Source of the DNA: Escherichia coli
Lineage (GTDB): Bacteria > Pseudomonadota > Gammaproteobacteria > Enterobacterales > Enterobacteriaceae
DNA: 64,000 nucleotides
Assembly: GCF_017348835.2 (NCBI RefSeq)
Contig: NZ_CP071375.1
Strand: one strand, 5' to 3'
The position numbers were made by a program, and so were the translations under genes. The first letter of the stretch is position 1; each line of letters begins with the position of its first letter. This document shows, one piece after another, positions 5,270 through 37,949 of the stretch. The notes beneath the pieces are model-generated. The model saw only the letters and a list, made by a program, of their open reading frames with translations, was not told the origin of the DNA and searched no databases.

Positions 5270-5602
5270 TCAGCTCAGAATAGCTTCCAGTCGAGCCAGC
5301 ACCTCATTCACGACAGCATCGGGTATACGTTCCAGCCGCTTACCGCTCCGAGCTCCCATATCAATGGTTCTGGGCTGGTCGCAGCGAATAACGCCCGTTG
5401 TTTTTGTTCCCGCCCCGTCCAGTGAAACGGTAAAACCGGCTTCGCGGGCAAAGTTTCCGCCGCTGGTGACAGGGACAACAACAGGCAACCGGGTGAACGT
5501 GTTAAACGATGCCTTCGATACGATGAGTACCGGACGTTTTCCACTTTGTTCATGGCCAGTGGTGGGATCCAGTGAAACGAGCCAGATTTCTCCTCTGTCC
5601 AT
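5270..5602 (-). CDS. PemK/MazF-family endoribonuclease toxin (ChpB-like)
   Basis: 110 aa; GEIWLVSLDPTTGHEQSGKRPVLIVS and GGNFAREAGF resemble ChpB/MazF. Confidence 0.85.
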   Translation of the reverse strand: MDRGEIWLVSLDPTTGHEQSGKRPVLIVSKASFNTFTRLPVVVPVTSGGNFAREAGFTVSLDGAGTKTTGVIRCDQPRTIDMGARSGKRLERIPDAVVNEVLARLEAILS

Positions 5603-5860
5603 CTACAGGATCTCCTTGCCCACCGCAGGCGCATCAATCCATTCCCGACCCTCTTCGCTTATTTCAGCGTGCGGATCGCACTGCGCCAACAGTTCTTCGA
5701 GCGAATAGCGGGGACGTTTTTGAGGTTCAATAATCAGGCAGCCATCATCAATGGTCATGCCCACTTCGCTGTCCGTCGACAGCCCTAGCGTTTTCAGCAC
5801 GGCGGGGGGAACCGCCAGCATGACGGATCCGCCAACCTTTTTCAGGCGAGTGGTATACAT
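5603..5860 (-). CDS. MazE/ChpS-like antitoxin
   Basis: ATG at 5858-5860 with GAGGTG just upstream; 85 aa; RYSLEELLAQCD motif as in ChpS; stop abuts the toxin start. The longer ORF-track call (to 6013) is taken as an upstream extension. Confidence 0.8.
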   Translation of the reverse strand: MYTTRLKKVGGSVMLAVPPAVLKTLGLSTDSEVGMTIDDGCLIIEPQKRPRYSLEELLAQCDPHAEISEEGREWIDAPAVGKEIL

Positions 5861-6015
5861 AGAGCACCTCCAGATATTATATTTTAATATAACATCTACG
5901 GCAGACGATGCACAACTATTCATCAGGTTCATTGTGGTTTCCTTAGTGTAATAAAGCGTGAAGAAAGCCTTAATCCATCGGAAGACAGATCCGGCAGTTT
6001 TCAAAGGCGACATTG

Positions 6016-6147
6016 CCGGTAAAAGGGCAACCGTCCTGATACATCAGGCGCTTCTTTCAGGTCATGAAGCATTTCGTACAGGCGGGAGCTTAGTGCGTAA
6101 CAAAGAAGGCCGATAATAGGAAACTGCTTTTGCAGTTCAAAGGATTA
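6016..6147. repeat. Imperfect direct repeat, copy B, flanking the toxin-antitoxin cassette
   Basis: Homologous to 5047-5195; contains palindrome cctgatacatcagg. Confidence 0.5.
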
Positions 6148-6208
6148 TGACGGTTCGGATAAACAAAATGCGGCGCAGCTTCCGTATCCGGGCTGCGCCG
6201 CAGGAACA

Positions 6209-6415
6209 TCAGCGGTAGCGCGAAGGCCAGATTTGCTCAGGCTTGAAGCCTAACGCTTCGGCAATTAACCTTTCGCCTTTGGGCCAGCGGCGGGTAAGCG
6301 CATTAGCCAGCGTGGAGGACGCCAGACCTGCCTGACGCGAAAGCGCTGACAGCGAAGTGCCTCGTTTTTTCAGCCCGGCGATAATGTCGGCAGGATGCCA
6401 GTCCTGCAGCATCAT
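6209..6415 (-). CDS. Ner/Nlp(SfsB)-family small DNA-binding protein
   Basis: 68 aa; WHPADIIAGLKKRGTSLSALSR...STLANAL...WPKGE...WPSRY matches the Ner/Nlp family. Confidence 0.8.
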   Translation of the reverse strand: MMLQDWHPADIIAGLKKRGTSLSALSRQAGLASSTLANALTRRWPKGERLIAEALGFKPEQIWPSRYR

Positions 6416-7243: not shown

Positions 7244-8848
7244 TCAATCTGCTGAATAGTTTATCGCATGTAATTCTCGGGTCATATAGTGGATACCCTC
7301 CTTCTTTTCTTTCATCCCCTCTTGCCTCACCATAAAAGCAAACGAAAAAATTGCTGAACGAGTTATCTGAAGTAAATGCTCAAAATGGTGAATAAAATCA
7401 CTTTCTTTGATAAAAAGAATATCTTCTATTAGTTGATAAGATTCGTAAATGTCCTCAGGTTTATCACTTTTATGTACAACTAAAAACTTATGCTCTAAAC
7501 CATTGCGCCATTCTTTATAGAAAGCCAACTCCCCACCCTTATCTTTATTCAGGTCGGTAGCAATACTGTACAGCGCCAGAAGCCCTGGTGATTTTACCTT
7601 TTCAAATAATTGTCTTCTGTTATCAACATCTAACTGCCAGAAATTCTGAAAATAGATATTCTTCTGAGATGTACCTTTTTTTGTTGTTGGGTAAAGATTA
7701 TAAAGTTCACATATGGCTACCGCAATTTTATCAAGAATACCAAAGCAAAGACGAAATGCCGTCCTGATTTTTTCAATTTCTATTCCTAAAACTTCGTCAT
7801 TATACAATTCCAGAAAATGGCTTTCGTACTTAATGTAATCCGTATTTTGTGGATGAAGATAATCAAAATAAAGATGGCGTGCGAGTGAAAACTCCGATTT
7901 AAGGCGATTTAATACCATCTCCATGGGAATGATAAAATCACCTGTTACACCGCCTCGCGAAGCAATCACAAGATCATCTGTAGCACTCCCTACACATGGG
8001 CAATACAGGCCATGTTCTGATAAAGTCAGATGATTTCTAAGACAAAACTGTCGATATGGGCTTAACGCTTCGAACTCTTGTTGTGTAAGTGCTTCATCGT
8101 GTTCGTCAGTTTCATCATCAACAGCATATTCTGCGATTTTCTCGTTAGTCTGCGCTATGCGTTCTAAATAGAACGATTCCCATTGTGGTGGGATATTTTT
8201 TGATACAGACGCTTTAATATATCCTGCTCTCACTTCTTTTAGTAACTTGATTGAAAATGAAGATGAAATAAGATTGAGGACCATAAGTGACATCGAACGG
8301 TTGACCCAAGCCTGTGGTATATCTAATCCCTTAAGATTGGTAAGATCATAATATCTCAATGACTCACTGAGCCGAAATTGACTTCTTAATGAATTAGCCA
8401 AATTAACAGATAGTTCAGCCTGAAATTCCTCCTGCTCCTCAGCAGATAGCTTAAAAGAACGCCAGTAGATATTTTTTAAGGAAACCAATTCTTCTATCGA
8501 TTTGAATGTATGGTCATTGGGGTTAGTAATGCTCACCAGATTAGATAGCGCATTACCATAGTTATAATAGTAAAGGCACTCTCCTAACACTGATATAAAT
8601 GCTTCTTTGTTATCTTCCATCAGGTTGCAACCAAGCTCTGACGCATTTTTATTATTTTGCATCTGCCCGATGTCAACAAGAGCACCCGCAATGTTCGCCA
8701 ATACTATAAAGTAGTTATCGTTCCTGATTGTTATTCTTTCCAGTTTGTTCAGGAACGCAACTGACTGTTGATAAGATTCGTCAAATCTTCCAATATCAAC
8801 CAGTTGGCTAATGAAATTACTTTCATCGACAAGTTCTTTTGTTATCAA
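7244..8848 (-). CDS. Large hypothetical protein with C-terminal HEPN-like motif (candidate RNase effector)
   Basis: 534 aa, strongly AT-rich coding sequence, TTG start 12 nt after the upstream gene's stop. C-terminal EWRNGLEH fits the HEPN R-x4-H motif. Confidence 0.6.
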   Translation of the reverse strand: MITKELVDESNFISQLVDIGRFDESYQQSVAFLNKLERITIRNDNYFIVLANIAGALVDIGQMQNNKNASELGCNLMEDNKEAFISVLGECLYYYNYGNALSNLVSITNPNDHTFKSIEELVSLKNIYWRSFKLSAEEQEEFQAELSVNLANSLRSQFRLSESLRYYDLTNLKGLDIPQAWVNRSMSLMVLNLISSSFSIKLLKEVRAGYIKASVSKNIPPQWESFYLERIAQTNEKIAEYAVDDETDEHDEALTQQEFEALSPYRQFCLRNHLTLSEHGLYCPCVGSATDDLVIASRGGVTGDFIIPMEMVLNRLKSEFSLARHLYFDYLHPQNTDYIKYESHFLELYNDEVLGIEIEKIRTAFRLCFGILDKIAVAICELYNLYPTTKKGTSQKNIYFQNFWQLDVDNRRQLFEKVKSPGLLALYSIATDLNKDKGGELAFYKEWRNGLEHKFLVVHKSDKPEDIYESYQLIEDILFIKESDFIHHFEHLLQITRSAIFSFAFMVRQEGMKEKKEGIHYMTRELHAINYSAD

Positions 8849-8860
8849 AATAAATTTTCC

Positions 8861-19762: not shown

Positions 19763-19863
19763 TAGTCTGGCGAAGATCATCCGATCTTCGCCTTACACTT
19801 TTGTTTCACATTCCTGTGACATACTATCGGATGTGCGGTAATTGTATGGAACAGGAGACACAC

Positions 19864-21318
19864 ATGAATAATAAGGGCTCCGGTCTGACCCCAGCTCAGG
19901 CACTGGATAAACTCGACGCGCTGTATGAGCAATCTGTAGTCGCTTTACGCAACGCCATTGGCAAATATATTACAAGTGGCGAATTACCTGATGAAAACGC
20001 CCGCAAACAAGGTCTTTTTGTCTATCCATCACTGACCGTAACCTGGGACGGTAGCACAACCAATCCCCCCAAAACGCGCGCATTTGGACGTTTTACTCAC
20101 GCAGGCAGCTACACCACCACGATTACTCGCCCTACTCTCTTTCGTTCGTATCTTAATGAACAACTTACGTTGCTGTATCAGGATTATGGTGCGCATATCT
20201 CTGTGCAACCCTCGCAGCATGAAATCCCTTATCCTTATGTCATCGATGGCTCTGAATTGACACTTGATCGCTCAATGAGCGCTGGGTTAACTCGCTACTT
20301 CCCGACAACAGAACTGGCGCAAATTGGCGATGAAACTGCAGACGGCATTTATCATCCAACTGAATTCTCCCCGCTATCGCATTTTGATGCGCGCCGCGTC
20401 GATTTTTCCCTCGCACGGTTGCGCCATTATACCGGTACGCCAGTTGAACATTTTCAGCCGTTCGTCTTGTTTACCAACTACACACGTTATGTGGATGAAT
20501 TCGTTCGTTGGGGATGCAGCCAGATCCTCGATCCTGATAGTCCCTACATTGCCCTTTCTTGTGCTGGCGGGAACTGGATCACCGCCGAAACCGAAGCGCC
20601 AGAAGAAGCCATTTCCGACCTTGCATGGAAAAAACATCAGATGCCAGCATGGCATTTAATTACCGCCGATGGTCAGGGTATTACTCTGGTGAATATTGGC
20701 GTGGGACCGTCAAATGCTAAAACCATCTGCGATCATCTGGCAGTGCTACGCCCGGATGTCTGGTTGATGATTGGTCACTGTGGCGGATTACGTGAAAGTC
20801 AGGCCATTGGCGATTATGTACTTGCACACGCTTATTTACGCGATGACCACGTTCTTGATGCGGTTCTGCCGCCCGATATTCCTATTCCGAGCATTGCTGA
20901 AGTGCAACGTGCGCTTTATGACGCCACCAAGCTGGTGAGCGGCAGGCCCGGTGAGGAAGTCAAACAGCGGCTGCGTACAGGTACTGTGGTAACCACAGAT
21001 GACAGGAACTGGGAATTACGTTACTCAGCTTCTGCACTTCGTTTTAACTTAAGCCGGGCCGTAGCAATTGATATGGAAAGTGCAACCATTGCCGCGCAAG
21101 GATATCGTTTCCGCGTGCCATACGGGACACTACTGTGTGTTTCAGATAAACCATTACATGGTGAGATTAAACTTCCCGGTCAGGCTAACCGTTTTTATGA
21201 AGGCGCTATTTCCGAACACCTACAAATTGGCATTCGGGCGATCGATTTGCTGCGCGCAGAAGGCGACCGACTGCATTCGCGTAAATTACGAACCTTTAAT
21301 GAGCCGCCGTTCCGATAA
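19864..21318 (+). CDS. amn: AMP nucleosidase
   Basis: 484 aa from ATG at 19864 (MNNKGSGLTPAQALDKL...); the ORF-track call from 19708 is an upstream extension. Confidence 0.9.
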   Translation: MNNKGSGLTPAQALDKLDALYEQSVVALRNAIGKYITSGELPDENARKQGLFVYPSLTVTWDGSTTNPPKTRAFGRFTHAGSYTTTITRPTLFRSYLNEQLTLLYQDYGAHISVQPSQHEIPYPYVIDGSELTLDRSMSAGLTRYFPTTELAQIGDETADGIYHPTEFSPLSHFDARRVDFSLARLRHYTGTPVEHFQPFVLFTNYTRYVDEFVRWGCSQILDPDSPYIALSCAGGNWITAETEAPEEAISDLAWKKHQMPAWHLITADGQGITLVNIGVGPSNAKTICDHLAVLRPDVWLMIGHCGGLRESQAIGDYVLAHAYLRDDHVLDAVLPPDIPIPSIAEVQRALYDATKLVSGRPGEEVKQRLRTGTVVTTDDRNWELRYSASALRFNLSRAVAIDMESATIAAQGYRFRVPYGTLLCVSDKPLHGEIKLPGQANRFYEGAISEHLQIGIRAIDLLRAEGDRLHSRKLRTFNEPPFR

Positions 21319-21660
21319 TAAGTTCTGAACCTTCTTCTCAGAAAAAGATGTGAAGAATTAAGTAAGACATCTGGCAAATAGTCCGCAATAAACGCGGGCT
21401 GTTTGCTTCCTTGGGCGGATACGAGTTTTATTATAACCTTAATGATTTTCACATATTAAAAGCAAGTATGCTTTCAAAACACAATTATAAAAAATTCCGC
21501 CAACAATATAAGTTTTTATAAAATTAAATATAAGATTATGACTTTAGAATATTTTTATTTCTAATAGACGAGATTTTTCCTGTTATGATATAATATGTCG
21601 AATTAACACATGTTAACGATTTACCAGTAATGTAAATAAATTTTCGAGGAGATCATTCCA

Positions 21661-22377
21661 GTGGGACGTAAATGGGCCAATATTGTTGCTAAAAAAACGG
21701 CTAAAGACGGTGCAACGTCTAAAATTTATGCAAAATTCGGTGTAGAAATCTATGCTGCTGCCAAACAAGGTGAACCCGATCCAGAATTAAACACATCTTT
21801 AAAATTCGTTATTGAACGTGCAAAGCAGGCACAAGTTCCAAAACACGTTATTGATAAAGCAATTGATAAAGCCAAAGGCGGCGGAGATGAAACGTTCGTG
21901 CAGGGACGTTATGAAGGCTTTGGTCCTAATGGCTCAATGATTATCGCCGAGACATTGACTTCAAATGTTAACCGTACGATTGCTAACGTTCGCACAATTT
22001 TCAATAAAAAAGGCGGCAATATCGGAGCGGCAGGTTCTGTCAGCTATATGTTTGACAATACGGGTGTGATTGTATTTAAAGGATCAGACCCTGACCATAT
22101 TTTTGAAATTTTACTTGAAGCTGAAGTTGATGTTCGTGATGTGACTGAAGAAGAAGGTAACATTGTTATTTATACTGAACCTACTGACCTTCATAAAGGA
22201 ATCGCGGCTCTAAAAGCAGCTGGAATCACTGAGTTCTCAACAACAGAATTAGAAATGATTGCTCAATCAGAAGTTGAGCTTTCCCCAGAAGATTTAGAAA
22301 TCTTTGAAGGGCTTGTTGATGCCCTTGAAGATGACGACGATGTACAAAAAGTTTATCATAACGTCGCAAATCTCTAA
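21661..22377 (+). CDS. yeeN: YebC/PmpR-family transcriptional regulator
   Basis: 238 aa, GTG start; YebC-family sequence. Confidence 0.85.
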
Positions 22378-22387
22378 TTATATGTTA

Positions 22388-22421
22388 AAGAAATCTGTCT
22401 TTATGGCAGATTTCTTTAATC
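22388..22421 (+). terminator. Intrinsic terminator after yeeN
   Basis: Stem aaagaaatctg/cagatttcttt followed by a T-rich tract. Confidence 0.5.
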
Positions 22422-22831
22422 TCATATAATCCTTATAAAAAATATAATGTTTAACTCGTCATATTGCTTATAAAAATCCCCGTTCCCAGAGAAATAATAT
22501 TTATTAAAATGGCAGGTCTTCTTTTTCTGATTACCGAAGACAAAGTGGCAATTACGTATAGTTTCCCGATAAAGACGCGACAGCTACATCCCGCATAAGG
22601 CATTTTTCTCTTTATCTTTGTACGGTACTTCATGGAACAGAATTTTTGACCTTGTGAATCGTGATGTCTGTTGGGGAGGGGCAATTTGCTCACTGAAGCG
22701 TGAGACTCGATTAAGCGCACGAAACACAGAAATCAAAAAACCCGGTCACTTTTTTACAAAGTGACCGGGTAAAAATAATTTTTATTTTTTAACTGCCTTG
22801 AGACTCATAGAGATGTCTCAAAACTAAAATT

Positions 22832-22907
22832 TGGCTCCTCTGACTGGACTCGAACCAGTGACATACGGATTAACAGTCCGCCGTTCTACCGACTGAACTA
22901 CAGAGGA
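22832..22907 (-). tRNA. asnW: tRNA-Asn (GUU)
   Basis: Reverse complement reads TCCTCTGTAGTTCAGTCGGTAGAACGGCGGACTGTTAATCCGTATGTCACTGGTTCGAGTCCAGTCAGAGGAGCCA. Confidence 0.95.
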
Positions 22908-24294
22908 ATCGTGAGAACGAGGCGAATATTAGCGATGCCCACCCACAATGTCAAAGCCTGTTTTTTAAATTTGAAATCGTTTGCTGAAATAATCTGCATT
23001 TTGTCGTTTATTCCGACACAACTGGCTTTTTTTCACACTTTTGCGGCTCGGATCGAGGGTATTTCCATAGCCAACGTCCAGTAACCATTCGCCAGTAAAA
23101 CAGCACGGCCCGCACAGCCCAGTCGGCAAACATTCCCATCCAGACACCAACCACACCCCAGCCAAGCATGATTCCCAGCACATAACCGACTACAACCCGA
23201 CAACCCCACATGCTCAACATCGAAACCCACATGGCGTAACGGGCATCACGAGCACCTTTAAATCCAGCGGGTAGCACCCATGAGGCGGACCAAATAGGCA
23301 TAAATAAAGCATTTAGCCAAATCAGAATCACAACGACATGTTTAACCTGTGGATCCTGGGTGTAAAACGATGCCATAAGCCCGGCAAAGGGAGCCGTTAG
23401 CCAGGCGATGGCCGTTAATCCAAGAGTGGACAGCCAGAACACATGCCGCAACTGAATCTCTGCTTGCGCTATCTGCCCTACCCCCAACCTTCGGCCTGTA
23501 ATGATCGTAGAAGCAGAGCCGAGCGCACTTCCGGGTAAGTTGATAAGAGCCGCAATTGAAAACGCGATAAAATTTCCGGCAATAACACTGGTCCCCATCC
23601 CGGCAACGAACATTTGGGTTAATAACCGACCACTGGTAAATAACACTGATTCGACACTCGCTGGAATACCAATCCCCATGACTTCCCAGATAATGCTAAA
23701 ATTCAGCGGTTTAAAATAGCTCTTTAACGAAATCCTTAGCGCAGGATTAAAACCAATCGCCAGCACCCACAAAATTGCAACTGCGCCAATATAACGAGAA
23801 ATGGTTAAACCCAACCCAGCCCCGACAAATCCCAGTCCCGGCCAGGAGAAAAGGCCGTAAATCAATATGCCGCTAATAATAATATTAAGAATATTCAGGC
23901 TACCGTTAATCAGTAGCGGTATTTTCGTATTCCCTGCACCACGAAGTGCCCCGCTACCAATCAAAGTGATGGCAGCTGCTGGATAACTGAGTACCGTCAG
24001 CTCCAGATAAGTCAACGCCAGTGCTTTAACTTCTGTCGTGGCATCACCCGCAACGAAATCAATAATTTGTTCGCCAAAATGATGAATAAGCGTTGCCAAC
24101 AGTACGGCAAACAAAGTCATGATCACCAATGACTGCCGCGTCGCCACCCTCGCTCGTCGTCGATCCCGCTTACCGAGACTAAATGCCACAACGACAGTAG
24201 TACCAAGATCGATAGCAGCAAAAAAAGCCATAATGACCATATTGAAGCTGTCTGAACCGCCCCGGGTTTCCTGGAGAGTGTTTTATCTGTGAAC

Positions 24295-25182
24295 TCAGGC
24301 TGCCAGATCATTATTTCCGATGGAAGCATAATAAGCTTTTTCTGCTTCTGCCGGAGGAATATGGCCCAGCCTTTCCAGCAATCGTCGATTGTTATACCAG
24401 TCCACCCACGTTAGTGTGGCCAGTTCCACTTCTGTCCGGTTTTTCCAGCTCTTACGGTGTATTACCTCCGCTTTGTAAAGACCATTGATGCTCTCAGCCA
24501 TCGCGTTGTCATACGAGTCGCCAGTACTCCCTGTTGATGCCAGTAATCCGGCTTCCTTAAGCCGCTGCGTGTAGGCCAGCGATACATACTGAGAACCTTT
24601 ATCACTGTGATGGATTGTGCCGGACGGCCGACGGGCCCACAACGCCTGCTCCAGTGCATCCAGCACGAATGTTGTTTCCATGGATGATGAGACCTGCCAT
24701 CCCACGATGTATCCGGCGAACACATCAATGATGAACGCCACATAAACGAAGCCCTGCCATGTGCTTACCCAGGTAAAATCAGCCACCCACAACTGGTCTG
24801 GACGTTCTGCCACGAACTGACGGTTTACGCGGTCGCATGCGGCAACGGCTTTCCGGCTGACGGTAGTGCGGACCTTTTTACCCCGGAGAACACCGGCAAG
24901 TCCCATAACTGCCATGAGACGTGCCACAGTGCATCTGGCCACTCTGATACCTTCCCGTAACAACTGACGCCAGACTTTACGCACACCGTATACCTGGTGA
25001 TTTTCATCGTATACGCGCTGTATCTCTTTCTTCAGCCAGTCATCGTGCTGCGCACGGGCACTGCGTTTATCCGGATGATGTCGCTGTTGCTGACAATGGT
25101 AATACGTTGACGGGGCAATATGCAGTTCGCTGCATACCGGTCCGACCCCGTACTGCTCACGCAGCTTATCCAGCAGTGGCAT
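24295..25182 (-). CDS. IS3-family transposase OrfB
   Basis: 295 aa, near-identical to 12141-13028. Confidence 0.85.
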   Translation of the reverse strand: MPLLDKLREQYGVGPVCSELHIAPSTYYHCQQQRHHPDKRSARAQHDDWLKKEIQRVYDENHQVYGVRKVWRQLLREGIRVARCTVARLMAVMGLAGVLRGKKVRTTVSRKAVAACDRVNRQFVAERPDQLWVADFTWVSTWQGFVYVAFIIDVFAGYIVGWQVSSSMETTFVLDALEQALWARRPSGTIHHSDKGSQYVSLAYTQRLKEAGLLASTGSTGDSYDNAMAESINGLYKAEVIHRKSWKNRTEVELATLTWVDWYNNRRLLERLGHIPPAEAEKAYYASIGNNDLAA

Positions 25183-25508
25183 TATTTTTTCCAGAGGCGG
25201 TCGAACTCCGCCTTCGCAAAATAAGCGGAAGCCTGGCGAAGGATATCGTTACTGCGGCGCAGTTCACGATTTTCACGTTCCAGCTCTTTCAGACGCTGAC
25301 GTTCAGCGGTGGTGAGTCCACCATCACCACTCCCGGTATCCCGCTCATGCTGGCGAACCCAGACACGCAGAGTCTCCGGCGTACAGCCAATCTTTGGGGC
25401 AATGGAACAAATTGCCGCCCACTGTGAGTCATATTCATCCTGACTTTCCAGAACCATACGAATCGCCCGCTGACGGACTTCGGGGGAAAAACGAGTATTT
25501 TTAGTCAT
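25182..25508 (-). CDS. IS3-family transposase OrfA
   Basis: 108 aa, identical to 11815-12141 product. Confidence 0.85.
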
Positions 25509-25968
25509 CCTGTTTACCTCTTTCTCAGGGAGTTTAGTCTCCAGGATTTCCGGGGCGGTTCAGTCCGCCAATCCCACGCCGGCCATCGCATCTTTTCCCA
25601 GCCAACTGACCAGAAAAGTGCTCAGGACACCCATCAGCAGGACACAGGCATTCTCCATGTAGATAGGAACAGCAAGCGGGGTTATCTCGCGCCAGAACAA
25701 CACTTTGTAACTCTTGCGTTTGGCGTGCCAGCGAGTGCCGTGAACAACCTGGCGTAAAGCAGAGGAGATATTCAAAGCCGACCTTAATTGCAGAAAGTGA
25801 AACCACATTTCAAATGATGAGGGAGAATCAGCAAAGCTGCAAAGATTTTCGCCAACAAATTGTCTGCAAATGCAACAAACTGTTGATAGAAACGGCAAAC
25901 AGTTGGGAAATTTAAAAATCGGGTTTGACAAAAGATTTTTCGCCGTTAAGATGTGCCTCAACAGCGAT

Positions 25969-26044
25969 TCCTCTGTAGTTCAGTCGGTAGAACGGCGGAC
26001 TGTTAATCCGTATGTCACTGGTTCGAGTCCAGTCAGAGGAGCCA
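25969..26044 (+). tRNA. asnU: tRNA-Asn (GUU)
   Basis: 76-nt sequence identical to the other Asn tRNA copies; ends in CCA. Confidence 0.95.
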
Positions 26045-28375: not shown

Positions 28376-28451
28376 TCCTCTGTAGTTCAGTCGGTAGAAC
28401 GGCGGACTGTTAATCCGTATGTCACTGGTTCGAGTCCAGTCAGAGGAGCCA
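28376..28451 (+). tRNA. asnV: tRNA-Asn (GUU)
   Basis: Third identical 76-nt Asn tRNA copy, with a downstream hairpin terminator. Confidence 0.95.
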
Positions 28452-28509: not shown

Positions 28510-29070
28510 TCATTCCAGATCAGCGTGTCGGGTAAACATTGTGGCACTGCTTTCACCCAGTTCCGACATCAACTGCAGAACAATTGCATCATAAGTAATA
28601 AAGCAGAGTTGCTCAAAAGCTGAGCCCATTGGTTGTGCGAAAGCGCCTGCAACACGATTGTTATCGTCTTTCACACTTCCTGGTAGTACCAACACAGATT
28701 GAGCTAATTTACCGATCGTCGAATCTGCTTTCATAGTTACCAGAGCTACGTTTACTCCGCTATCAACTGCTTTTTGTGCCAGACTTTTCAAACTGGTAGT
28801 TTCACCACTGCCTGACCCAATAATTAATAGATCTCCAGGTTGGGTATGCGGGGATGATATTTCTCCCACAACGCTTACTGAAAAACCTAAATGCAGCAAG
28901 CGATTAGCAAAAGCGCGAATAGCAATGCCACTGCGACCAGCTCCCTGCAAAAAAATATGCCGGGCATTTCTGATTTGCGAAATAAACTGTGCAGCCTGAG
29001 CATCGTCAATCTTCAGCGCATTACTCTCTAATTCATGCAGAATATTAATAGTATTTTCCTGAACACTCAT
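28510..29070 (-). CDS. SIS-domain sugar-phosphate isomerase (6-phospho-3-hexuloisomerase-like)
   Basis: 186 aa with SIS features (FLQGAGRSG...LLIIGSGSGET). Confidence 0.65.
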   Translation of the reverse strand: MSVQENTINILHELESNALKIDDAQAAQFISQIRNARHIFLQGAGRSGIAIRAFANRLLHLGFSVSVVGEISSPHTQPGDLLIIGSGSGETTSLKSLAQKAVDSGVNVALVTMKADSTIGKLAQSVLVLPGSVKDDNNRVAGAFAQPMGSAFEQLCFITYDAIVLQLMSELGESSATMFTRHADLE

Positions 29071-29084
29071 TTTTCTCTCCCTTT

Positions 29085-29837
29085 TTAAGCAATAGTCCGG
29101 CCACCATCCATTAAAATGGTTTGTCCCTGAATATAAGAGTTATCTTTATCTGCCAAAAATATTGCCAGGTTAGCCACATCATCGATAGTCCCCAGACGAC
29201 GGACGGGTATTTTTTCCAGGACAGCGTCTAAATCGGCTTGTGTTGGATAGTTGACCCGCATCATCTCTCCGGTGTCTATTAAGCGAGGAGCGATCGCATT
29301 AACATTGACGCCTTTTGGTCCTAACTCTTTTGCCAGCCCACGAATCAATCCTTCGCCTCCCGCTTTACTGGCAGGATAACTCACACCGCCCCCAGTCCCC
29401 GAAAGCGCTGATCCCGATGAGATATAAACAATAGATCCCTTATTTGTCAGGAAATCATCATAAAACGCCTTAACGGTATTAAACAAACCCGATAAGTTAA
29501 TTGCGATAGTCTTATTCCATTCCTCAAAAGAAATATTGTTAACTTTATTGGCAAATGCCACACCGGCATTTAATATCAACACATCAATGCGACCAAAGGT
29601 AGCAAATACCTTTTCCCGAACATCCACTAATGCCTGTGGATCGGAGACATCTGTTTTAACAAACAGCGATTTAACATCGCCAAAAGTTAACTCTGCTGCA
29701 GTGGCCTTGCCGTTCTCTTCGTTATAGTCAACAATAACAGTATGTGCACCACGATCAGCAAATTGTTTAGCTATCCCTTTGCCAATACCGTGAGCACCTC
29801 CGGTAACTAAAACCACTTTACCTGCAAAATTACTCAT
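29085..29837 (-). CDS. Short-chain dehydrogenase/reductase (SDR) family oxidoreductase
   Basis: 250 aa; N-terminal VTGGAHGIGKGIA dinucleotide-binding motif. Confidence 0.75.
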   Translation of the reverse strand: MSNFAGKVVLVTGGAHGIGKGIAKQFADRGAHTVIVDYNEENGKATAAELTFGDVKSLFVKTDVSDPQALVDVREKVFATFGRIDVLILNAGVAFANKVNNISFEEWNKTIAINLSGLFNTVKAFYDDFLTNKGSIVYISSGSALSGTGGGVSYPASKAGGEGLIRGLAKELGPKGVNVNAIAPRLIDTGEMMRVNYPTQADLDAVLEKIPVRRLGTIDDVANLAIFLADKDNSYIQGQTILMDGGRTIA

Positions 29838-29934
29838 TACTTTTCTCCATTAAAGATATTTTTTAGCTGAGGTTTTCCTCCCGATATGAAATCGAAAACC
29901 TCACTTAACTGGATGTGAAATTTTTAGATTGTGA

Positions 29935-30579
29935 TCACTGAACAGCGATTTTTAATGCCTGATAACTTTCACGAGGCTGTTTGTTAAATAAGGCACCACC
30001 AACAACAATAAGGTCAGCCCCTGCTTCTTTAACTTGTTTTACATTATCAAGATTAACGCCACCATCCACTTCAATTTGAATATCTCTGCCAGATATCATT
30101 TTTTTGGTATTACGGATTTTCTCCAGACTTTTATGAATAAATGTCTGGCCTGGTTGCCCTGGGTTAATTGTCATTAACAATATATAATCAATATCATCCA
30201 ATAAATATTCGATTACAGATTCAGGTGTCCCAGGATTAAGCACAACACCTGCTTTGCGACCCGCCTTTTTGATTTTTTGAATAATATAATGTACATGTGG
30301 CGTCGATTCATAATGTACAGAAATCATCTCCGCCCCGGTATTGATTACATCATCAATATGTCGCTCAGGATTTGCCAGCATCATGTGCACGTCAAAGATC
30401 ATCGAACTGGCTTTTTTCATTGCTGCTATTTGATTTGGGCCAAAGGCAATATTACTGACATAAGTGCCATCCATTAAATCAACGTGCAATATTTCGGTTT
30501 GTTCCTCTTCCAGAAAATGAATTTCATCTTTCAGGCGTAAAATATCCGCGCCAAATATAGAAGGTAATATTTTTGCCAT
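29935..30579 (-). CDS. Ribulose-phosphate 3-epimerase-family protein (SgcE/AlsE-like)
   Basis: 214 aa with Rpe-family features. Confidence 0.7.
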   Translation of the reverse strand: MAKILPSIFGADILRLKDEIHFLEEEQTEILHVDLMDGTYVSNIAFGPNQIAAMKKASSMIFDVHMMLANPERHIDDVINTGAEMISVHYESTPHVHYIIQKIKKAGRKAGVVLNPGTPESVIEYLLDDIDYILLMTINPGQPGQTFIHKSLEKIRNTKKMISGRDIQIEVDGGVNLDNVKQVKEAGADLIVVGGALFNKQPRESYQALKIAVQ

Positions 30580-30601
30580 GTTAAAACTCCAGAATATTAA
30601 A

Positions 30602-31855
30602 TCAATGTAATACGGTACTCAACCAATAGGTTAAAATTTCCCACGGGCCGGTTAATACAAAATCAGTACCTTGTCCTTGCAAGCCTACACCGGCTCCAGC
30701 TAAAAATGGCGTTGCCCCTGGTGCGACATAACCGCCTAAATACATCACTACAACGCAGAATAACAAGGTCGAGATAATCGAACGAATCACGTTACCGTTG
30801 CTCGCCATTACGGTCATGGTGGTCATATAAATAATTGACATCAATACGCCAATTGGGAAGATCTTAATATCAGGCAATACCAGAGCACATAGCATGGTTA
30901 AAGGAATGGTAATTACTGTCACGGTGACCGTCGCCTGATCCCCCAACGCTAGTGCACAATCCATACCGATGTTTAATTCAGCATCTTTACCCATCTGTTT
31001 TTGCATGATTTCTTTGGCACTTTTCCCTATTGGGTTAAGACCTTCCATCAGCACACCGACCACTTTAGGTAACAATACCATTACGCCAGCAACCCCCATC
31101 GCCATGGGAACAATTGTGGTAATTGCCTGTTTCGTTAAAACTCCGAGTAATGCGCCAACGATAACACCGATAATTGCAGGTTCACCAAAGACACCCAGGC
31201 GTTTTTGCACACTGTTTAAGTCAACATCTAACTTATTTAACCCTGGGATGTAATCAATGATTTTATTTACTACCCAGGCGAACGGTAGAGTCCAGCCGAT
31301 ATGAATCATCGTGGTACAGGTTGTTCCCTCGAGTCCATAATATTTTTGCCATCTGGGCGCAATCAAATCGCCAATAAACAGAGCCGCAATACTCAAAGCC
31401 ACCGCGACAGAGAAGCCGATGATAAAACTGTCGAACACAAAATATGCCAGAGCGCCCGGAACTAAAAAATGCATATAGTTCCAGATATCAACATTTAACG
31501 TTTTGGTTAATTTCAGGCGCACCAGTATCAGGTTAAGTACGATGCCAACTGGTATCACTAATGCGGCAAAAGGTGCTACCCATGCAGCAGCACCGACTGC
31601 TGGCCAACCAATATCTGCAACCGTAAAACCACTACCTACTTTTGAGTAAAACTCAATAGCTGGCTGTAATGAACTATTTAATAAACCAACAACCAAACCT
31701 AAACCAATAAAACCAATACCGACTGTGATGCCCGACTTGATCGCGGCACCGGGTTTCATTCTGAACACCAGACCTAAAATAAATATCACCAGCGGCAGTA
31801 TTGCAGTTGCCCCCATTCCGGTGATTGTTTCCATTAAATTTTTCAACATTTCCAT
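30602..31855 (-). CDS. PTS EIIC component, galactitol (GatC/SgcC) family
   Basis: 417-aa polytopic membrane protein with GatC-family sequence. Confidence 0.8.
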   Translation of the reverse strand: MEMLKNLMETITGMGATAILPLVIFILGLVFRMKPGAAIKSGITVGIGFIGLGLVVGLLNSSLQPAIEFYSKVGSGFTVADIGWPAVGAAAWVAPFAALVIPVGIVLNLILVRLKLTKTLNVDIWNYMHFLVPGALAYFVFDSFIIGFSVAVALSIAALFIGDLIAPRWQKYYGLEGTTCTTMIHIGWTLPFAWVVNKIIDYIPGLNKLDVDLNSVQKRLGVFGEPAIIGVIVGALLGVLTKQAITTIVPMAMGVAGVMVLLPKVVGVLMEGLNPIGKSAKEIMQKQMGKDAELNIGMDCALALGDQATVTVTVITIPLTMLCALVLPDIKIFPIGVLMSIIYMTTMTVMASNGNVIRSIISTLLFCVVVMYLGGYVAPGATPFLAGAGVGLQGQGTDFVLTGPWEILTYWLSTVLH

Positions 31856-31875
31856 TTTTATTATTCCTGTCAGGT

Positions 31876-32169
31876 TTAGCTATTTGCTAATTCAGTTAAT
31901 AACTCTCCTAATTTCTTACGTAATGCTCCTTCATTAATACCCGTTACAAAACCTGCAACACTCATATGTGGTTTCCCAATATCACCTTTATAGTTATTAG
32001 TTGTGAGTACAATATCTGCATGAGCCATCTCAGAAGAAAGTTCAGCCATACTGCATTTGTTGATTTTAAATGCCGTAATACCATATTCAGCACATACTGA
32101 CTTCACTTCATCAGCAGCAAGCGTAGATGTAGCGACACCGCTACCACAAGCAACAAGAATATTAATCAT
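31876..32169 (-). CDS. PTS EIIB component
   Basis: 97 aa with N-terminal ILVACGSGVATS cysteine-loop motif. Confidence 0.75.
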   Translation of the reverse strand: MINILVACGSGVATSTLAADEVKSVCAEYGITAFKINKCSMAELSSEMAHADIVLTTNNYKGDIGKPHMSVAGFVTGINEGALRKKLGELLTELANS

Positions 32170-32187
32170 AATAAACTCCAGTTTTTA

Positions 32188-32682
32188 CTATTGGATTATT
32201 TTGGACACAAAAAGTGCTTTTGCATCATCGACGGGAAGTGTCAGTAAGCTTTGGTAAAATTCTTCATTTTGGAGATGGTTAAATAATGACTTTAACAATC
32301 GAAGCTGGTCAGCAGGATCCGTAACAATAAGATTAACGACGAGTCTGACCCACAATATTCCATCTTCATCAGCCCTGTTCACAGGTATTGCGTCTGGCAG
32401 ACGGATGATATAAATAGCCGGTTGATTCGCATGTTCACTATCACAGTGTGGTATAGCGATAGAATAACCTTCCAGTTCTATTCCTGTCGGATATTCCGCT
32501 TCGCGTTTACGCATAGCATTGAGCCAGCTCTCTTTCACCGTATTCGTTTCACGATGCGTGTTATAAATATGTTCAAGCACGGCATCGTAGTTCTGTAGTC
32601 CCGCACCATCGGCAACACTGATCGATATCATATCCTTCCCCCTCACCCCACAATGCTCACATGAGCATTGAACAATCTTCAT
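32188..32682 (-). CDS. PTS EIIA component (type 2 family); start uncertain
   Basis: Contains AIPHCDSEH active-site-His region; a shorter product from an internal Met near 32634 is plausible. Confidence 0.65.
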   Translation of the reverse strand: MKIVQCSCEHCGVRGKDMISISVADGAGLQNYDAVLEHIYNTHRETNTVKESWLNAMRKREAEYPTGIELEGYSIAIPHCDSEHANQPAIYIIRLPDAIPVNRADEDGILWVRLVVNLIVTDPADQLRLLKSLFNHLQNEEFYQSLLTLPVDDAKALFVSKIIQ

Positions 32683-32967
32683 ATGAGCAGTTATAGCACA
32701 ACGATCCTGTGGATGAATGACGAGATCTGAGAAATTAAATCCAGATCACAAAAGCACATAATGGCGACAGTATTTATGCTCATATGAGCAAATCATGATT
32801 CAAAAAATGATTTCTTCGAAAAAAATGAGGTAAAACTGGCAATATGCAGAGGATGCACTCAATAGAGGACGCTAAGCAAGCATCGCCATGGATGCTCACT
32901 TGATAATTAGGAAATGATTACATTTGGCAAAGCTGATTCGAAGGGAGAAGGCGTGTCGTAGTGAGTT

Positions 32968-33723
32968 CTAACAGGTTATTACTGACGTGTATTTTGCGAC
33001 TTCGGCAATCCCCTCTTTGTCGGCATGATCGTTGGTTATAAGGGCGGTGATCTCCGACCAGTCGCAGATCTTAAACAAACTGCTGCGCTCAAACTTGGTG
33101 TAATCGCCGAGGATATATTTTTTGTCTGAGTGCGAAATTATCGTGCGATCCAAAAACGCATCAGAAGAAGAAGGCGTCGATGGACCAGTCATGTTACTAA
33201 AGCCGTCGGTTCCAATAAAACAGAGATCAACATGTATATCGTTGATCATAGATACCGCCCACCCCCCAAACACTGAGGAACTCTTTCTACGCAGTTCGCC
33301 GCCAAAGAGAAAAACCTGGTTGTCAGATTCAATCAACACACTGGCAACGGGGAGCGAATCTGTGAAGATTTTAAACCCAGATTTCATACATAACAGGTTA
33401 GCCAGCTCAAAAGTGGTACTGCCCGTACCGATAATCATCGAACTATTAGGTGGAATGAAATCAAGCGCTTTGCGAGCAATCGCCTTCTTATAAGAGTTAT
33501 TTTCTTTTTCCCTGACCTGAAAGGGATGCTCTATGGCCCTTTGCTTTAAAGTCGCCCCACCATGGCTTTTGATCAGCAGCCCTTTTTGTTCAAGATGGGT
33601 CAAATCTTTCCTGATGGTTTCATACGTTACTTCATACTTTCGTGCAAGATCACTGACATAGACCGTACCTGCCGACATTAAGTCTTCAAGTATTAACTTT
33701 CGCCTTTCATCAACCAGATACAT
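32968..33723 (-). CDS. DeoR-family transcriptional regulator
   Basis: 251 aa; N-terminal HTH (RRKLILEDLMSAGTVYVSDLARKYEVTYETIRKDL) and C-terminal sugar-phosphate sensor region. Confidence 0.8.
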   Translation of the reverse strand: MYLVDERRKLILEDLMSAGTVYVSDLARKYEVTYETIRKDLTHLEQKGLLIKSHGGATLKQRAIEHPFQVREKENNSYKKAIARKALDFIPPNSSMIIGTGSTTFELANLLCMKSGFKIFTDSLPVASVLIESDNQVFLFGGELRRKSSSVFGGWAVSMINDIHVDLCFIGTDGFSNMTGPSTPSSSDAFLDRTIISHSDKKYILGDYTKFERSSLFKICDWSEITALITNDHADKEGIAEVAKYTSVITC

Positions 33724-34071
33724 CCTTCCTCCTGAAAACTATTACCCATCTTAGAAAACGCCAAGCATAGCACAGATGATGCAAACAAAAACAAACACTA
33801 ACAGTGGAAAGTACAAATAAACCCAATAAAGACAATAGTTCAAAAACCATATATCCGATTGATAATAAATGAGTTTTTATTATTCATTACAACGCCACTG
33901 TACAATCCCAATTTGTCCCAATTGGCTTAATTTATTAATTATTTGTTTTTGTTGGTTTTTAATATCATAAAAATCAATTAGTTATAAATTTTGTGATTCA
34001 GATCTCAATTGACAACCAATATTTACCAATAGCATACTTGGCTTTAGTTACTTAACGACAGGCAAAATGAA

Positions 34072-34608
34072 ATGAAAACAAAGATTGCTATCGCAAGCGA
34101 TGATGTAGGTTTTGCACGTAAAGAGGAGATAAAAAAATACCTCATAGAAGAGAAAAACATGGAGATCGTGTACGATCCCGTCACATGTAAGGAACAAGGT
34201 GTCAATAACTTCGCGCGTCTGGCCGACGAAATGGCAGGCATTATTCAACGCGATGAGTGCCGTCTGGGAATTTACATTTGTGGGACTGGCATTGGCTTTA
34301 CTTGTCAGATCAACAAACACTGGGGCATAAGAGCCGTTGCGGTTACTAACCCCTACTCCGCAAAGCGGGCGCGACTCAGCAATAACGCACAAGTTATTGG
34401 ACTGGGTTGCCGGGTCAACGATCTCGAATACAGCAAAATGATTGTCGATGCATGGTTGGATAACCCATTCGACTTCACCACCGCCAGAGAAAATTCTAAA
34501 AAGAACTTGCTAGAAGCTGAACGTAACGATAATGCATTGCTGGTTAAGCCCGCTGATGTACGCTGGAATATGGGTTTCCGACCAGATGATGAAAAATCTG
34601 AGGGTTAA
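34072..34608 (+). CDS. RpiB/LacA/LacB-family sugar-phosphate isomerase
   Basis: 178 aa with RpiB-family features. Confidence 0.7.
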   Translation: MKTKIAIASDDVGFARKEEIKKYLIEEKNMEIVYDPVTCKEQGVNNFARLADEMAGIIQRDECRLGIYICGTGIGFTCQINKHWGIRAVAVTNPYSAKRARLSNNAQVIGLGCRVNDLEYSKMIVDAWLDNPFDFTTARENSKKNLLEAERNDNALLVKPADVRWNMGFRPDDEKSEG

Positions 34609-34611
34609 TGT

Positions 34612-35982
34612 ATGGAACTGATCACGCAATTTATAAACGATCTGGGAAATTTTATATTTATCCCGGTCATCTTCCTGGTACTGATGAAGATACTTGGCCG
34701 TCCTCTTTCAGAATGTATCTCGTCTGCCATCAAAGTCGGCATTGGTTTCATTGCGTTAACCATGACCATCAAACTGATGCTGGAAAAAATGCAACCGGCA
34801 GTCACCGGATTAGCAGAAGCAACAGGTTCCTCGCTCAGTGCCATCGATGTTGGTGGCGCAGCGACTGCAGTTATGGGATTTGGCTCCAGCATGGGCGCTA
34901 TCATTATTCCCCTCTGTGTTGCGGTAAATATTGCAATGCTGGTCGCCCGCCTGACTGACTGTGTTAACGTTGATGTTTTCAACCTTCATCAAAATGCGTC
35001 AATGGGGGCAATTGTTGGCGTCTATTCTGGCAGCTTCCTGTATGGCGCATTGACCGCCGCGCTATTCCATGTCTGGGCGCTGATCGCTGCCGATCTTGGT
35101 GCTAAAAATAACGAAAAATTCTTTAACCTGCCAAAAGGTGTTGCGATCTCTCACCCGGTTGCCAATACCTACTTACTTTTCGCTTATCCATTCAACTGGA
35201 TTTATGATCGCATCCCAGGCTTCCGTAATCTGAATGTGACCGCCGAAACTATTCAAAAACGGTTTGGCATTCTCGGCGATCCAACTATGGTTGGTTTTAT
35301 TATTGGTATTTTATTGGGCTTTTGTGGTTATGGCTGGAAATCCCCATACCACACCATAATCGCCAGCCTACAGTTAGGGATGTATCTGGCTGCGGTCATG
35401 CTTCTGTTGCCACGTATGACCTCTATCATGATGGAAGGGCTTGTTCCGCTTTCTAACGTAGCACGCAAAAAACTGGTCAAACGTTTCCCGGATCGTCAAA
35501 TCACTGTTGGCATGGACACTGCCCTGATTGTGGGTCATCCGTCAGTTATCGCCCCTGCATTATTACTGATTCCGGTAATTGTGATCCTCGCCGTAATCTT
35601 GCCTGGCAACCGCGTTATGCCACTGGGTGACCTCTCTCAGTTTGTGTTTTTCATTGCCTGCATGGTACCTGTTTTCAATGGCAACATTATTCGCACCTGG
35701 GTGACCTCGATCATATTGTTTGGTGGTGGTCTGTATATTGCGTCGTGGATGGCACCGGCTACCAACGAAGTCTTCCAGAAATTTGGTACAAACCCGGATG
35801 CCAGCGTGATGTACTCTTCGCTTAACCCGTCAGCGAATCCATTTACTGGTCTGTTTGCCGCCCTGAGCCATGTTGGAATCATTGGCTATGTGATGGCAGG
35901 TATCCTTTTGTTATCTATCGGATACTTAATTAAACAAAAATCACGTCGCCAGATTGAAACGGATTTGGAAAAAGCGCTTTAA
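34612..35982 (+). CDS. PTS EIIC component, galactitol family (second copy)
   Basis: 456-aa membrane protein, paralogous to the EIIC at 30602-31855. Confidence 0.8.
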   Translation: MELITQFINDLGNFIFIPVIFLVLMKILGRPLSECISSAIKVGIGFIALTMTIKLMLEKMQPAVTGLAEATGSSLSAIDVGGAATAVMGFGSSMGAIIIPLCVAVNIAMLVARLTDCVNVDVFNLHQNASMGAIVGVYSGSFLYGALTAALFHVWALIAADLGAKNNEKFFNLPKGVAISHPVANTYLLFAYPFNWIYDRIPGFRNLNVTAETIQKRFGILGDPTMVGFIIGILLGFCGYGWKSPYHTIIASLQLGMYLAAVMLLLPRMTSIMMEGLVPLSNVARKKLVKRFPDRQITVGMDTALIVGHPSVIAPALLLIPVIVILAVILPGNRVMPLGDLSQFVFFIACMVPVFNGNIIRTWVTSIILFGGGLYIASWMAPATNEVFQKFGTNPDASVMYSSLNPSANPFTGLFAALSHVGIIGYVMAGILLLSIGYLIKQKSRRQIETDLEKAL

Positions 35983-36005
35983 ATCTTTTACAGAGGAATA
36001 ATCAA

Positions 36006-36290
36006 ATGAAAAAAATATTAGTAGTTTGCGGAAACGGAATTGCCTCATCTTCCATCATGGTCTCTGTACTGCAGGACTTCCTGAAAGAAGAGAAAATTGA
36101 AGCGCAAGTCGATAAATCTTCGTTAATGGCATGCACCAGCGATACCTTCAACAGCTATGACCTGGTAGTTTCATCAACCAAACTCGATAACCCGGCCATT
36201 ACTACTCGTGTCATCGTTGGCGCTGGATTACTGACTGGTCTGGGCGAAGATGAGATTTTCGCTGCAGTTAAAGAAGAGATGTTGAAATAA
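36006..36290 (+). CDS. PTS EIIB component (second set)
   Basis: 94 aa with VVCGNGIASS motif. Confidence 0.75.
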   Translation: MKKILVVCGNGIASSSIMVSVLQDFLKEEKIEAQVDKSSLMACTSDTFNSYDLVVSSTKLDNPAITTRVIVGAGLLTGLGEDEIFAAVKEEMLK

Positions 36291-36300
36291 CAGGTGTGCA

Positions 36301-36759
36301 ATGAAATTTGAAATTCTGGTGAATGATGTTGATAACAGCATCAGTGACTATCAAACGGCGATCACCTTTGCTGGTACGCAATTATTGGAAAAAGGCTACA
36401 TCACTGCAGAATACATTGACGCCTGCCTGGAACGTGAAAAAAACTATCCGACAGGGCTAATGATGGCAAACGGTCAGGGTATCGCCATTCCCCATGCCGA
36501 TTACACGCTGGTAAATGTAAACAGTATCAGTATTGTTCGTTTCGCCAATGATGTCACTTTCGGGCAAATGGAAGATGCTGATTTAACAGTTGATTGTAGC
36601 ATTATGTTTAACCTGGCATTTGCCACCAGTGATCAACATATGTCGATATTGCGTCGTTTATTCACACTGTTTCAGGATAACGCCTTTGTTGAGACTTGCC
36701 GCAATTTACCTGCAACGCGCGTGGCTAAATATGTAGAGGATACGCTCGCAGCATCCTGA
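36301..36759 (+). CDS. PTS EIIA component (second set)
   Basis: 152 aa with GIAIPHAD active-site-His region. Confidence 0.7.
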   Translation: MKFEILVNDVDNSISDYQTAITFAGTQLLEKGYITAEYIDACLEREKNYPTGLMMANGQGIAIPHADYTLVNVNSISIVRFANDVTFGQMEDADLTVDCSIMFNLAFATSDQHMSILRRLFTLFQDNAFVETCRNLPATRVAKYVEDTLAAS

Positions 36760-36810
36760 AATTAAAAGGGCAGAATCAGCGGTACTGCCCTTTCTTCACT
36801 GATACGGCTA

Positions 36811-37788
36811 TTAATCCAGAAGTTTAATGGCCGTATCAAAATCAGTAATTAAGACATTCAAAAGTCCGGATTTCAGCGAAGCAAGGATGCCTTCATATTT
36901 TTCTTCTCCTCCAGCGACACCAATCACTTTTTTGGCTTTTTGTAGTTGATCCATCGAAATGCCAAATCCCAGACGTTCAATAGGACTATGAAGAATCTTC
37001 CCTTCCCTGTTGACCAACGAGATACACACATCCGCAGCGATATCTTGTTGAAACAAAGCTTCGCACCAGGTATCCGGAAATATTTTACACAAGCTTGAAG
37101 AACCAGATTTCCAGTCACCTATCCCGGTGATAACCACATCCAACTGTGAGTAATATTGCTGTGTATCTAATACCGCAGGATCACCTGCCAGTCTGGCAGC
37201 AAGCTCTTCGTCATCGACCCACATCGGCACGTACATTGGGTGCGCTTTTCCCTGCGAAATGGCTGCGATCTTATGAATAAGATCTATTGGCCCTTGACTG
37301 AACTCAATCCCCGGATGTACGCCAGATAACTGCACAACGTCTAAAGGAGGCAACTTGCTCAACTTACTGACCGTGCTTGATAATACACGCCCCCAGGCGA
37401 TCCCCACTTTCATACCTTCATGAAGAGATTGCATAAGATATTCAGCGGTGACTTCACCCAATTTGTGATTGAGTTCTTCTTGCGTCGTCCAGGATTCTGC
37501 AACTGAAAGAACAATTGCATCTTCCAGATGAAATTTTTTCCGTAGATTATTAGCGATTTCTTCATCCATCGCTTGCTGCTTAGGGAAGATAAACCTCACG
37601 TAATCCTGTTCGATCGCCTCATCGATCAATCTGGCAACTTTAAAGCGGGAAACGCCAAGCTCCTCTGCAATCTCAATCTTGGTTTTCATATCCGCAAAAT
37701 AACGTCTGACCACGAGCGAGTATATGTAGCGAGGATCGTAACCCTGCCAGCGGCTGTTTTTTTTCTGTTTCGTCATTCTCTTTTCCAT
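36811..37788 (-). CDS. SorC/DeoR-type sugar-binding transcriptional regulator
   Basis: 325 aa with N-terminal HTH and C-terminal sugar-binding domain typical of SorC-family regulators. Confidence 0.7.
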   Translation of the reverse strand: MEKRMTKQKKNSRWQGYDPRYIYSLVVRRYFADMKTKIEIAEELGVSRFKVARLIDEAIEQDYVRFIFPKQQAMDEEIANNLRKKFHLEDAIVLSVAESWTTQEELNHKLGEVTAEYLMQSLHEGMKVGIAWGRVLSSTVSKLSKLPPLDVVQLSGVHPGIEFSQGPIDLIHKIAAISQGKAHPMYVPMWVDDEELAARLAGDPAVLDTQQYYSQLDVVITGIGDWKSGSSSLCKIFPDTWCEALFQQDIAADVCISLVNREGKILHSPIERLGFGISMDQLQKAKKVIGVAGGEEKYEGILASLKSGLLNVLITDFDTAIKLLD

Positions 37789-37949
37789 TGATCATGTCAT
37801 CAGCAAACATGTATAAATCAGAAGAGTATAACGATTATGCTCATAAGAGATGCGCATATGAGAAGAAAATTATCATTTGTATGATTCGAAACAACCTGTT
37901 CTGGATGACGGAATGCTTACACAGACCGACAAACCAGACGTTTTGAATG

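Follow-up and report, generated by a model that had tools for sequence, protein, structure and literature searches.

A complete IS629 copy lies within yeeO

The 64,000-nucleotide stretch of Escherichia coli DNA analysed here (contig NZ_CP071375.1; hereafter the window) carries a MATE transporter gene, yeeO, that is split by a copy of the insertion sequence IS629 between two tRNA-Asn genes. Another IS629 copy lies elsewhere in the window in the opposite orientation; we refer to it as copy 1 and to the copy in yeeO as copy 2. Very probably, copy 2 is a complete and apparently functional element that inserted once, in the ancestor of a pig-associated lineage, at codon 82 of yeeO, duplicating GTC, reducing the gene product to a stub and causing the loss of YeeO. 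The features at the locus are listed here, with IRR and IRL denoting the right and left terminal inverted repeats.

22832 to 22907, minus strand: tRNA-Asn(GTT), asnW by position (ARAGORN; Rfam tRNA, 72.6 bits; K-12 gene order)
23008 to 24252, minus strand: 3' part of yeeO, comprising the second copy of codon 82, codons 83-495 and the stop (list of open reading frames)
24250 to 24252: GTC, IRR-side copy of the target-site duplication (read directly; single in the uninterrupted allele)
24253 to 25562, minus strand: IS629 copy 2, complete, 1,310 bp (end motifs, DNA identity, OrfB identity)
24253 to 24277, plus strand: IRR, terminal inverted repeat TGAACCGCCCCGGGTTTCCTGGAGA (identical to IRL at 22 of 25 positions)
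24295 to 25182, minus strand: orfB, 295 aa from ATG, with HTH_21 and rve domains (list of open reading frames, protein match, Pfam)
25111 to 25227, minus strand: predicted ALIL pseudoknot, a frameshift-stimulating RNA of IS3-family elements (Rfam RF01497)
25182 to 25508, minus strand: orfA, 108 aa, with an HTH_Tnp_1 domain (list of open reading frames, exact match in the protein collection, Pfam)
25185 to 25191, minus strand: candidate A-rich slippery site, G AAA AAA followed by TAA (context CTCTGGAAAAAATAATGCC and the 404-aa fusion)
25538 to 25562, minus strand: IRL, terminal inverted repeat TGAACCGCCCCGGAAATCCTGGAGA (end motif; the open reading frame of the YeeO fragment stops at the element's terminus)
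25563 to 25565: GTC, IRL-side copy of the target-site duplication, codon Asp82 (GAC on the minus strand)
25563 to 25808, minus strand: 5' part of yeeO, codons 1-82 (list of open reading frames, in-silico rebuild)
25969 to 26044, plus strand: tRNA-Asn(GTT), asnU by position (ARAGORN, Rfam, K-12 gene order)

The ends of the element were searched for as patterns throughout the window, with shuffled sequence as a control. A 28-mer from the IRR side matched twice, at 24253 (plus strand) and 13043-13070 (minus strand), and a 35-mer from the IRL side also matched twice, at 25528-25562 (minus strand) and 11761 (plus strand); no match to either was expected in the shuffles. Both ends of copy 2 are thus exactly where a first-pass annotation of the window had placed them. 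The element reads TGAACCGCCCCGG...CCGGGGCGGTTCA, with 5'-TG and CA-3' termini and imperfect inverted repeats. The same annotation had set yeeO between asnW and asnU, and tRNA-Asn genes indeed lie on both sides, in the order annotated in K-12 MG1655: asnW (minus strand), yeeO (minus strand), asnU (plus strand), cbl, nac and asnV. The span 23008-25808 runs from the yeeO stop codon to the yeeO ATG (MWFHF...).

The GTC reported on both sides of the element was read directly at both junctions, and the comparison proposed with an uninterrupted yeeO was made using strain MB06231 (locus L004), which has one GTC only at the site (...GAAGCTGTCCGCCAAT...). An empty site was rebuilt in silico by deleting 24253-25562 together with one GTC. 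The rebuilt sequence (1,988 bp with flanks) was colinear with the MB06231 locus, aligning end to end at 99.4% identity. The deletion rejoined the 3' part of yeeO to the 5' part in frame, and the resulting frame was open for 495 codons from MWFHF. Its 495-aa product exactly matched a catalogued "toxic metabolite efflux MATE transporter YeeO" present on 33 contigs, and had a Pfam MatE score of 188 bits in two stretches. Because the empty site was restored exactly and the rebuilt YeeO is a known full-length protein, these data support simple transposition of IS629 with a 3-bp duplication, and nothing in the sequence is at odds with this account.

Identity and coding content of the element

The element had initially been described as IS629-like. 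OrfB of copy 2 is identical to the protein recorded as "IS629 transposase OrfB [E. coli O157:H7 str. Sakai]" in the protein collection searched, and the orfA product likewise has an exact match there. At the DNA level, copy 2 shares 99.5% identity with the annotated IS629 of phage BP-4795 and 98.3% with copies from Stx2a phages; the usual criterion for an isoform is a DNA identity of about 95% or more to the named element. Judged by its sequence, the element is IS629 itself rather than merely IS629-like, because its OrfB is identical to that of the Sakai IS629 and its DNA is 99.5% identical to the BP-4795 copy. IS629, of which IS1203 and IS3411 are treated as isoforms, duplicates 3-4 bp of its target, with a duplication present at 21 of 47 sites in O157:H7 genomes, and its targets have no clear consensus (PMC3271280).

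orfB lies in the -1 frame relative to orfA, and the two frames overlap at TGGAAAAAATAATG (also given as CTCTGGAAAAAATAATG). A conceptual -1 frameshift gives a fused OrfAB of 404 aa. This protein would be made by -1 ribosomal frameshifting at the A-run, stimulated by the ALIL pseudoknot, for which the Rfam model scored 120.3 bits against a gathering score of 50 (E = 6e-32). The shift from orfA to orfB is predicted to occur within the A-rich site at 25185-25191, the exact point being deduced from the sequence context. In the annotation of pig strain PE164, described below, the OrfB record carries the PGAP label "programmed frameshift". Pfam searches of the transposase identified rve (92 bits), HTH_21 and HTH_Tnp_1, and motif assignment gives D244, D303 and E339 (OrfAB numbering) as the putative catalytic residues, spaced such that 35 residues separate the second D from the E. 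By analogy with the IS3 family, transposition would proceed by copy-out and paste-in through a circular intermediate, with the DDE transposase OrfAB catalysing the reaction.

Predicted consequences for YeeO and its neighbours

IS629 enters yeeO after codon Asp82, GAC, whose plus-strand reading is GTC. Read on the minus strand, the element begins with an in-frame TGA, so that the YeeO fragment stops at residue 82 with no residues added; the open reading frame at 25560-25961 terminates at the element's terminus. Since the first MatE domain starts at residue 48, the insertion cuts inside it. The interrupted allele would retain an 82-residue N-terminal stub ending at the element's terminal TGA and a 3' part that appears to be promoterless and to lack the first transmembrane helix. 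On these grounds YeeO is predicted to be non-functional in the interrupted allele. The K-12 protein exports flavin mononucleotide (FMN) and flavin adenine dinucleotide (FAD), according to McAnulty and Wood (2014) as cited in PMC6092379, and carrier strains are accordingly expected to have lost a flavin and toxic-metabolite exporter. The PE164 annotation treats both parts as pseudogenes, the 3' part as "YeeO, missing N-terminus" and the 5' part as "FMN/FAD transporter, missing C-terminus".

Polar damage to neighbouring genes seems unlikely, because yeeO is a lone gene with a tRNA gene on either side, and a separate promoter-like site, a consensus match only, lies at 22954-22926 for asnW. In the promoter and terminator scan, sites were no more numerous than in shuffled sequence.

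The insertion marks a small pig-associated lineage

The insertion was searched for in 5,426 complete E. coli genomes, and the query region was matched in 5,425 of them. Only two, the pig strains PE164 and F2_81, carry yeeO::IS629; the other 5,424 are without it. At least one draft assembly, GCA_020732225.1, carries it as well, and the 410-aa product of the yeeO 3' part is called on four contigs of 10-20 kb. A scan of JGI metagenome contigs did not find the yeeO/IRR junction. PE164, from China, is an O108:H9 hybrid atypical enteropathogenic/extraintestinal pathogenic E. coli strain from a piglet (PMC12233904), and its arrangement is that of the window, with 4 base differences over 35.3 kb, 3 of them within copy 2. 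These three are clustered at window positions 24412, 24435 and 24436 (IS positions 1151, 1128 and 1127) and reflect either gene conversion between IS copies or a polishing error in one assembly. F2_81, from Australia, matches only as far as the IRL end of the element. In GCA_020732225.1, an 11,404-bp contig ends 108 nt inside the element and has the same junction, IRR/GAC AGC TTC AAT ATG; the segment between the two IS629 copies appears in drafts as a separate contig of this length.

PE164, F2_81 and GCA_020732225.1 are independent assemblies with identical yeeO/IS junctions. Because the insertion is common to all three, it is older than the split of these strains and is a marker of one small lineage. 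Very probably it occurred once, in the ancestor of this pig-associated lineage. The first-pass annotation had proposed a simple, recent transposition: the empty site bears out the first adjective, and the second holds at the scale of the species only, as the insertion is specific to a lineage and not to a strain. The paper describing PE164 (PMC12233904) names neither IS629 nor yeeO, no paper found in the literature search names yeeO together with IS629, and a literature search on strain F2_81 returned unrelated matches only.

The inverted IS629 pair recombines in a sister strain

The second IS629 copy of the window and the DNA that separates it from yeeO are as follows.

11761 to 13070, plus strand: IS629 copy 1, inverted relative to copy 2 (end motifs)
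13071 to 24252: 11,182-bp segment between the inverted copies, holding the yeeJ 3' part, a yeeL-like glycosyltransferase family 9 gene, shiA, amn, yeeN, asnW and the yeeO 3' part
11761 to 13070 with flanks, against locus L002 at 4958-6271: copy 1 junction comparison (sister-strain comparison)

The two copies had been reported to be inverted, about 11 kb apart and different in at least one OrfB residue, and all of this holds. They differ at exactly one base, IS position 576, which is A in copy 1 and G in copy 2. The change falls in OrfB residue 66 (OrfAB residue 175, inside HTH_21), which is Ser in copy 1 and Gly in copy 2. The Gly form is the common one; the Ser66 form of copy 1 was absent from the protein collection searched and is a private Gly-to-Ser change.

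In F2_81 the same elements are joined differently. The 3' part of yeeO continues as ...GTC/IRR-IS-IRL/NACHT island, and the island sequence, ...ATCCTTGG, reads as the left flank of the window's copy 1 in reverse complement. The 5' part continues as ...GAC/IRL-IS-IRR/OLD/yeeJ; the IRR of this second IS copy faces a 26-nt second IRR, after which come an OLD-family (TOPRIM) gene fragment and the yeeJ 5' part. A crossover between the yeeO copy and the copy 1 homologue leaves exactly these junctions as its reciprocal products; about 18 kb, from the OLD fragment through the yeeO 3' part, is inverted relative to the backbone as a result. Because F2_81 carries these products, the inverted IS629 pair does act as a recombination substrate in nature. 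The GTC/GTC pair of the window is intact, and there has thus been no net recombination between copies 1 and 2 in this genome; here the yeeO copy would have stayed a simple insertion, with an inverted IS629 11.2 kb away as a substrate for homologous recombination. The 26-nt IRR itself (CTCTCCAGGAAAACCGGGGCGGTTCA, locus L003 29291-29316) stands directly after a complete IS629 and is followed by GAT and a 188-aa OLD/TOPRIM fragment. It looks like the scar of an IS that inserted into the end of an older one.

Copy 1 borders a truncated gene and a deletion

Copy 1 is flanked by ...AAGGAT and CTGCATC..., without a target duplication. A simple insertion can be ruled out for it, as there is no duplication and the flanks are a NACHT gene on one side and yeeJ on the other. 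The left flank falls in a gene that in strain N39 encodes a 1,354-aa NACHT-domain protein; in the window 946 of the 1,354 codons are left, at 8861-11701 (minus strand), adjoining a HEPN_LA2681 gene at 7244-8848 (minus strand). The genes at 7244-11701 resemble a STAND/HEPN pair of the defence type that has been disabled; neither the truncated NACHT protein nor the HEPN protein was matched by PADLOC. The surrounding island also has MazEF, IS66 and integrase genes.

On the right, the IRR of copy 1 joins yeeJ. F2_81 holds an oppositely oriented IS629 in yeeJ with a GTT duplication (...CTGTT/IS/GTTACTGCATC...), and the copy 1/yeeJ junction of the window lies exactly 4 bp outside the IRL of that copy. 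The two yeeJ junctions lie within one base of each other, closer than chance would allow. Our best guess is that a further IS629 inserted beside the resident end and that recombination between IS copies followed. The window and PE164 are without 6,979 bp, reaching into yeeJ, that F2_81 holds. Relocation of the missing yeeJ 5' part elsewhere in PE164 is ruled out, since PE164 was not among the high-identity matches, and the loss is for the same reason a deletion. We also considered whether GAT, which follows the 26-nt IRR remnant in F2_81 as well, is the duplication of an ancestor of copy 1. The match is probably due to chance, because the predicted empty site occurs in no genome and the intact N39 island is about 2.5 kb longer between the flanks. 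An IS629 hot spot in yeeJ common to several lineages is ruled out, as the sites in other lineages differ and no junction is shared.

Two scars, the 4-bp-offset copy 1/yeeJ junction of the window and PE164 and the 26-nt second IRR of F2_81, fit the idea that IS629 in the pig lineage has a preference for inserting at, or just beside, the termini of IS629 copies already present, and that the nested pairs collapse into deletions by recombination. We regard this idea as tentative and on balance doubtful. If it were true, the inverted pair would be part of an actively rearranging IS cluster rather than two unrelated insertions, and an intermediate is predicted in which a plus-oriented IS629 lies beside the yeeJ copy with the junction ...GGTTCAGTTACTG/TGAACC....

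Elsewhere, independent IS629 insertions in yeeJ are present in 2014C-3011 (L005 1665-2974) and in the O103:H2 strain 129 (L006 1504-2813), the duplicated bases being GTC and GAC. Of the four duplications compared, three read GTC or its complement, which may point to a weak target preference of IS629, in a very small sample.

Alternative explanations

The following points weigh against a single, undisturbed insertion that inactivates yeeO. An even number of inversions between the copies would give a structure identical to the one observed. Transcription can read through IS629 in stx2::IS629 (PMC7430833), and because of this precedent the 3' part of yeeO may be transcribed. Moreover, that YeeO is lost, that there is no polarity and that the element is active at present are all conclusions that we infer.

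In the best-surviving rival, the arrangement is not primary: recombination between the two copies would have turned the 11-kb segment round, and a later event would have returned it, restoring the GTC/GTC pair. Recombination of this kind does happen in the lineage, as F2_81 attests, and exchange between IS copies is hinted at by the three clustered positions at which copy 2 of the window departs from that of PE164. An inversion and return, however, needs two extra events that left no trace, and the sole difference between the copies, at position 576, shows no mosaic. We therefore consider it very unlikely, and keep to simple insertion of copy 2 as the explanation.

A composite transposon, in which the inverted IS629 pair arrived as a unit with the 11.2 kb that it encloses, is suggested by the bracketing of this segment by nearly identical copies. 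Yet the outer flanks are GAT and GTC, with no duplication around the unit; the internal genes keep the native K-12 order yeeJ-yeeL-shiA-amn-yeeN-asnW-yeeO; and the halves of yeeO rejoin perfectly across copy 2 alone. The outer flanks and the native synteny refute this model, to which we give practically no credence. An assembly artefact, with a repeat put in the wrong gap, is a familiar hazard of IS copies, and this lineage has roughly 25-30 IS629-matching places per genome. It is scarcely conceivable here, because two genomes finished independently of each other and a draft contig, which stops 108 nt into the IS, have the same junctions, and the expected 3-bp duplication is present at both.

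Neighbouring regions

The yeeL-like glycosyltransferase family 9 gene between the IS copies (17079-18131, minus strand; L001 10280-11332) is intact in the PE164 annotation and a pseudogene in K-12 MG1655. Beyond asnU, the tRNA scan of the window found another tRNA-Asn gene at 28376-28451 (plus strand). An insert of about 9 kb between asnV and ldtA (approximately 28510-37800; L001 21711-30977) is absent from K-12 and contains two phosphotransferase systems, rpe, hxlB, a short-chain dehydrogenase/reductase-type (SDR) oxidoreductase and two regulators; it looks like a sugar-utilisation islet beside a tRNA-Asn gene. In N39, a strain from human cerebrospinal fluid (L008), cbl and nac come immediately after the same integrase/HEPN/NACHT/OLD island, and this stretch lacks the genes from yeeJ to yeeO. 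Islands may attach or recombine at one or another of the four identical tRNA-Asn genes.

Significance and comparison with known systems

yeeO::IS629 is a known element inserted by a known mechanism, and it is already in RefSeq, where PE164 has two yeeO pseudogene pieces around an "IS3 family transposase". The junction is a clean typing marker for the small pig-associated lineage that includes PE164, with little significance beyond typing. Two things are added to the earlier reading: an inversion that arose naturally in F2_81, and the scar of a deletion beside copy 1. Across the three genomes compared, one IS copy is found as a simple insertion, as an inversion partner (F2_81) and as the neighbour of an IS-bordered deletion, and gene order around IS629 pairs should not be assumed in draft assemblies of this lineage.

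In structure, copy 2 resembles IS629 of Shigella sonnei and of O157:H7 Sakai in its length of 1,310 bp, TG...CA termini, orfA/orfB arrangement with a -1 frameshift, ALIL pseudoknot, DD(35)E transposase and 3-bp duplication. It differs from them only in its site, codon 82 of yeeO, and in its host lineage, which is of the pig O108:H9 type. As a simple insertion that inactivates one gene and marks a lineage, it is comparable to stx2::IS629 in O157:H7 FRIK1275 (PMC7430833) and to gne::IS629 in O-rough O157:H7, which is named in PMC3271280. In contrast to both, the target here is a non-essential exporter without a known virulence link or reported phenotype. Finally, the reciprocal junctions of F2_81 and the deletion beside the IS in the window and PE164 resemble the chromosomal inversions and deletions that arise from recombination between IS copies, although the scale is small (about 18 kb in F2_81) and the yeeO copy of the window is not rearranged.

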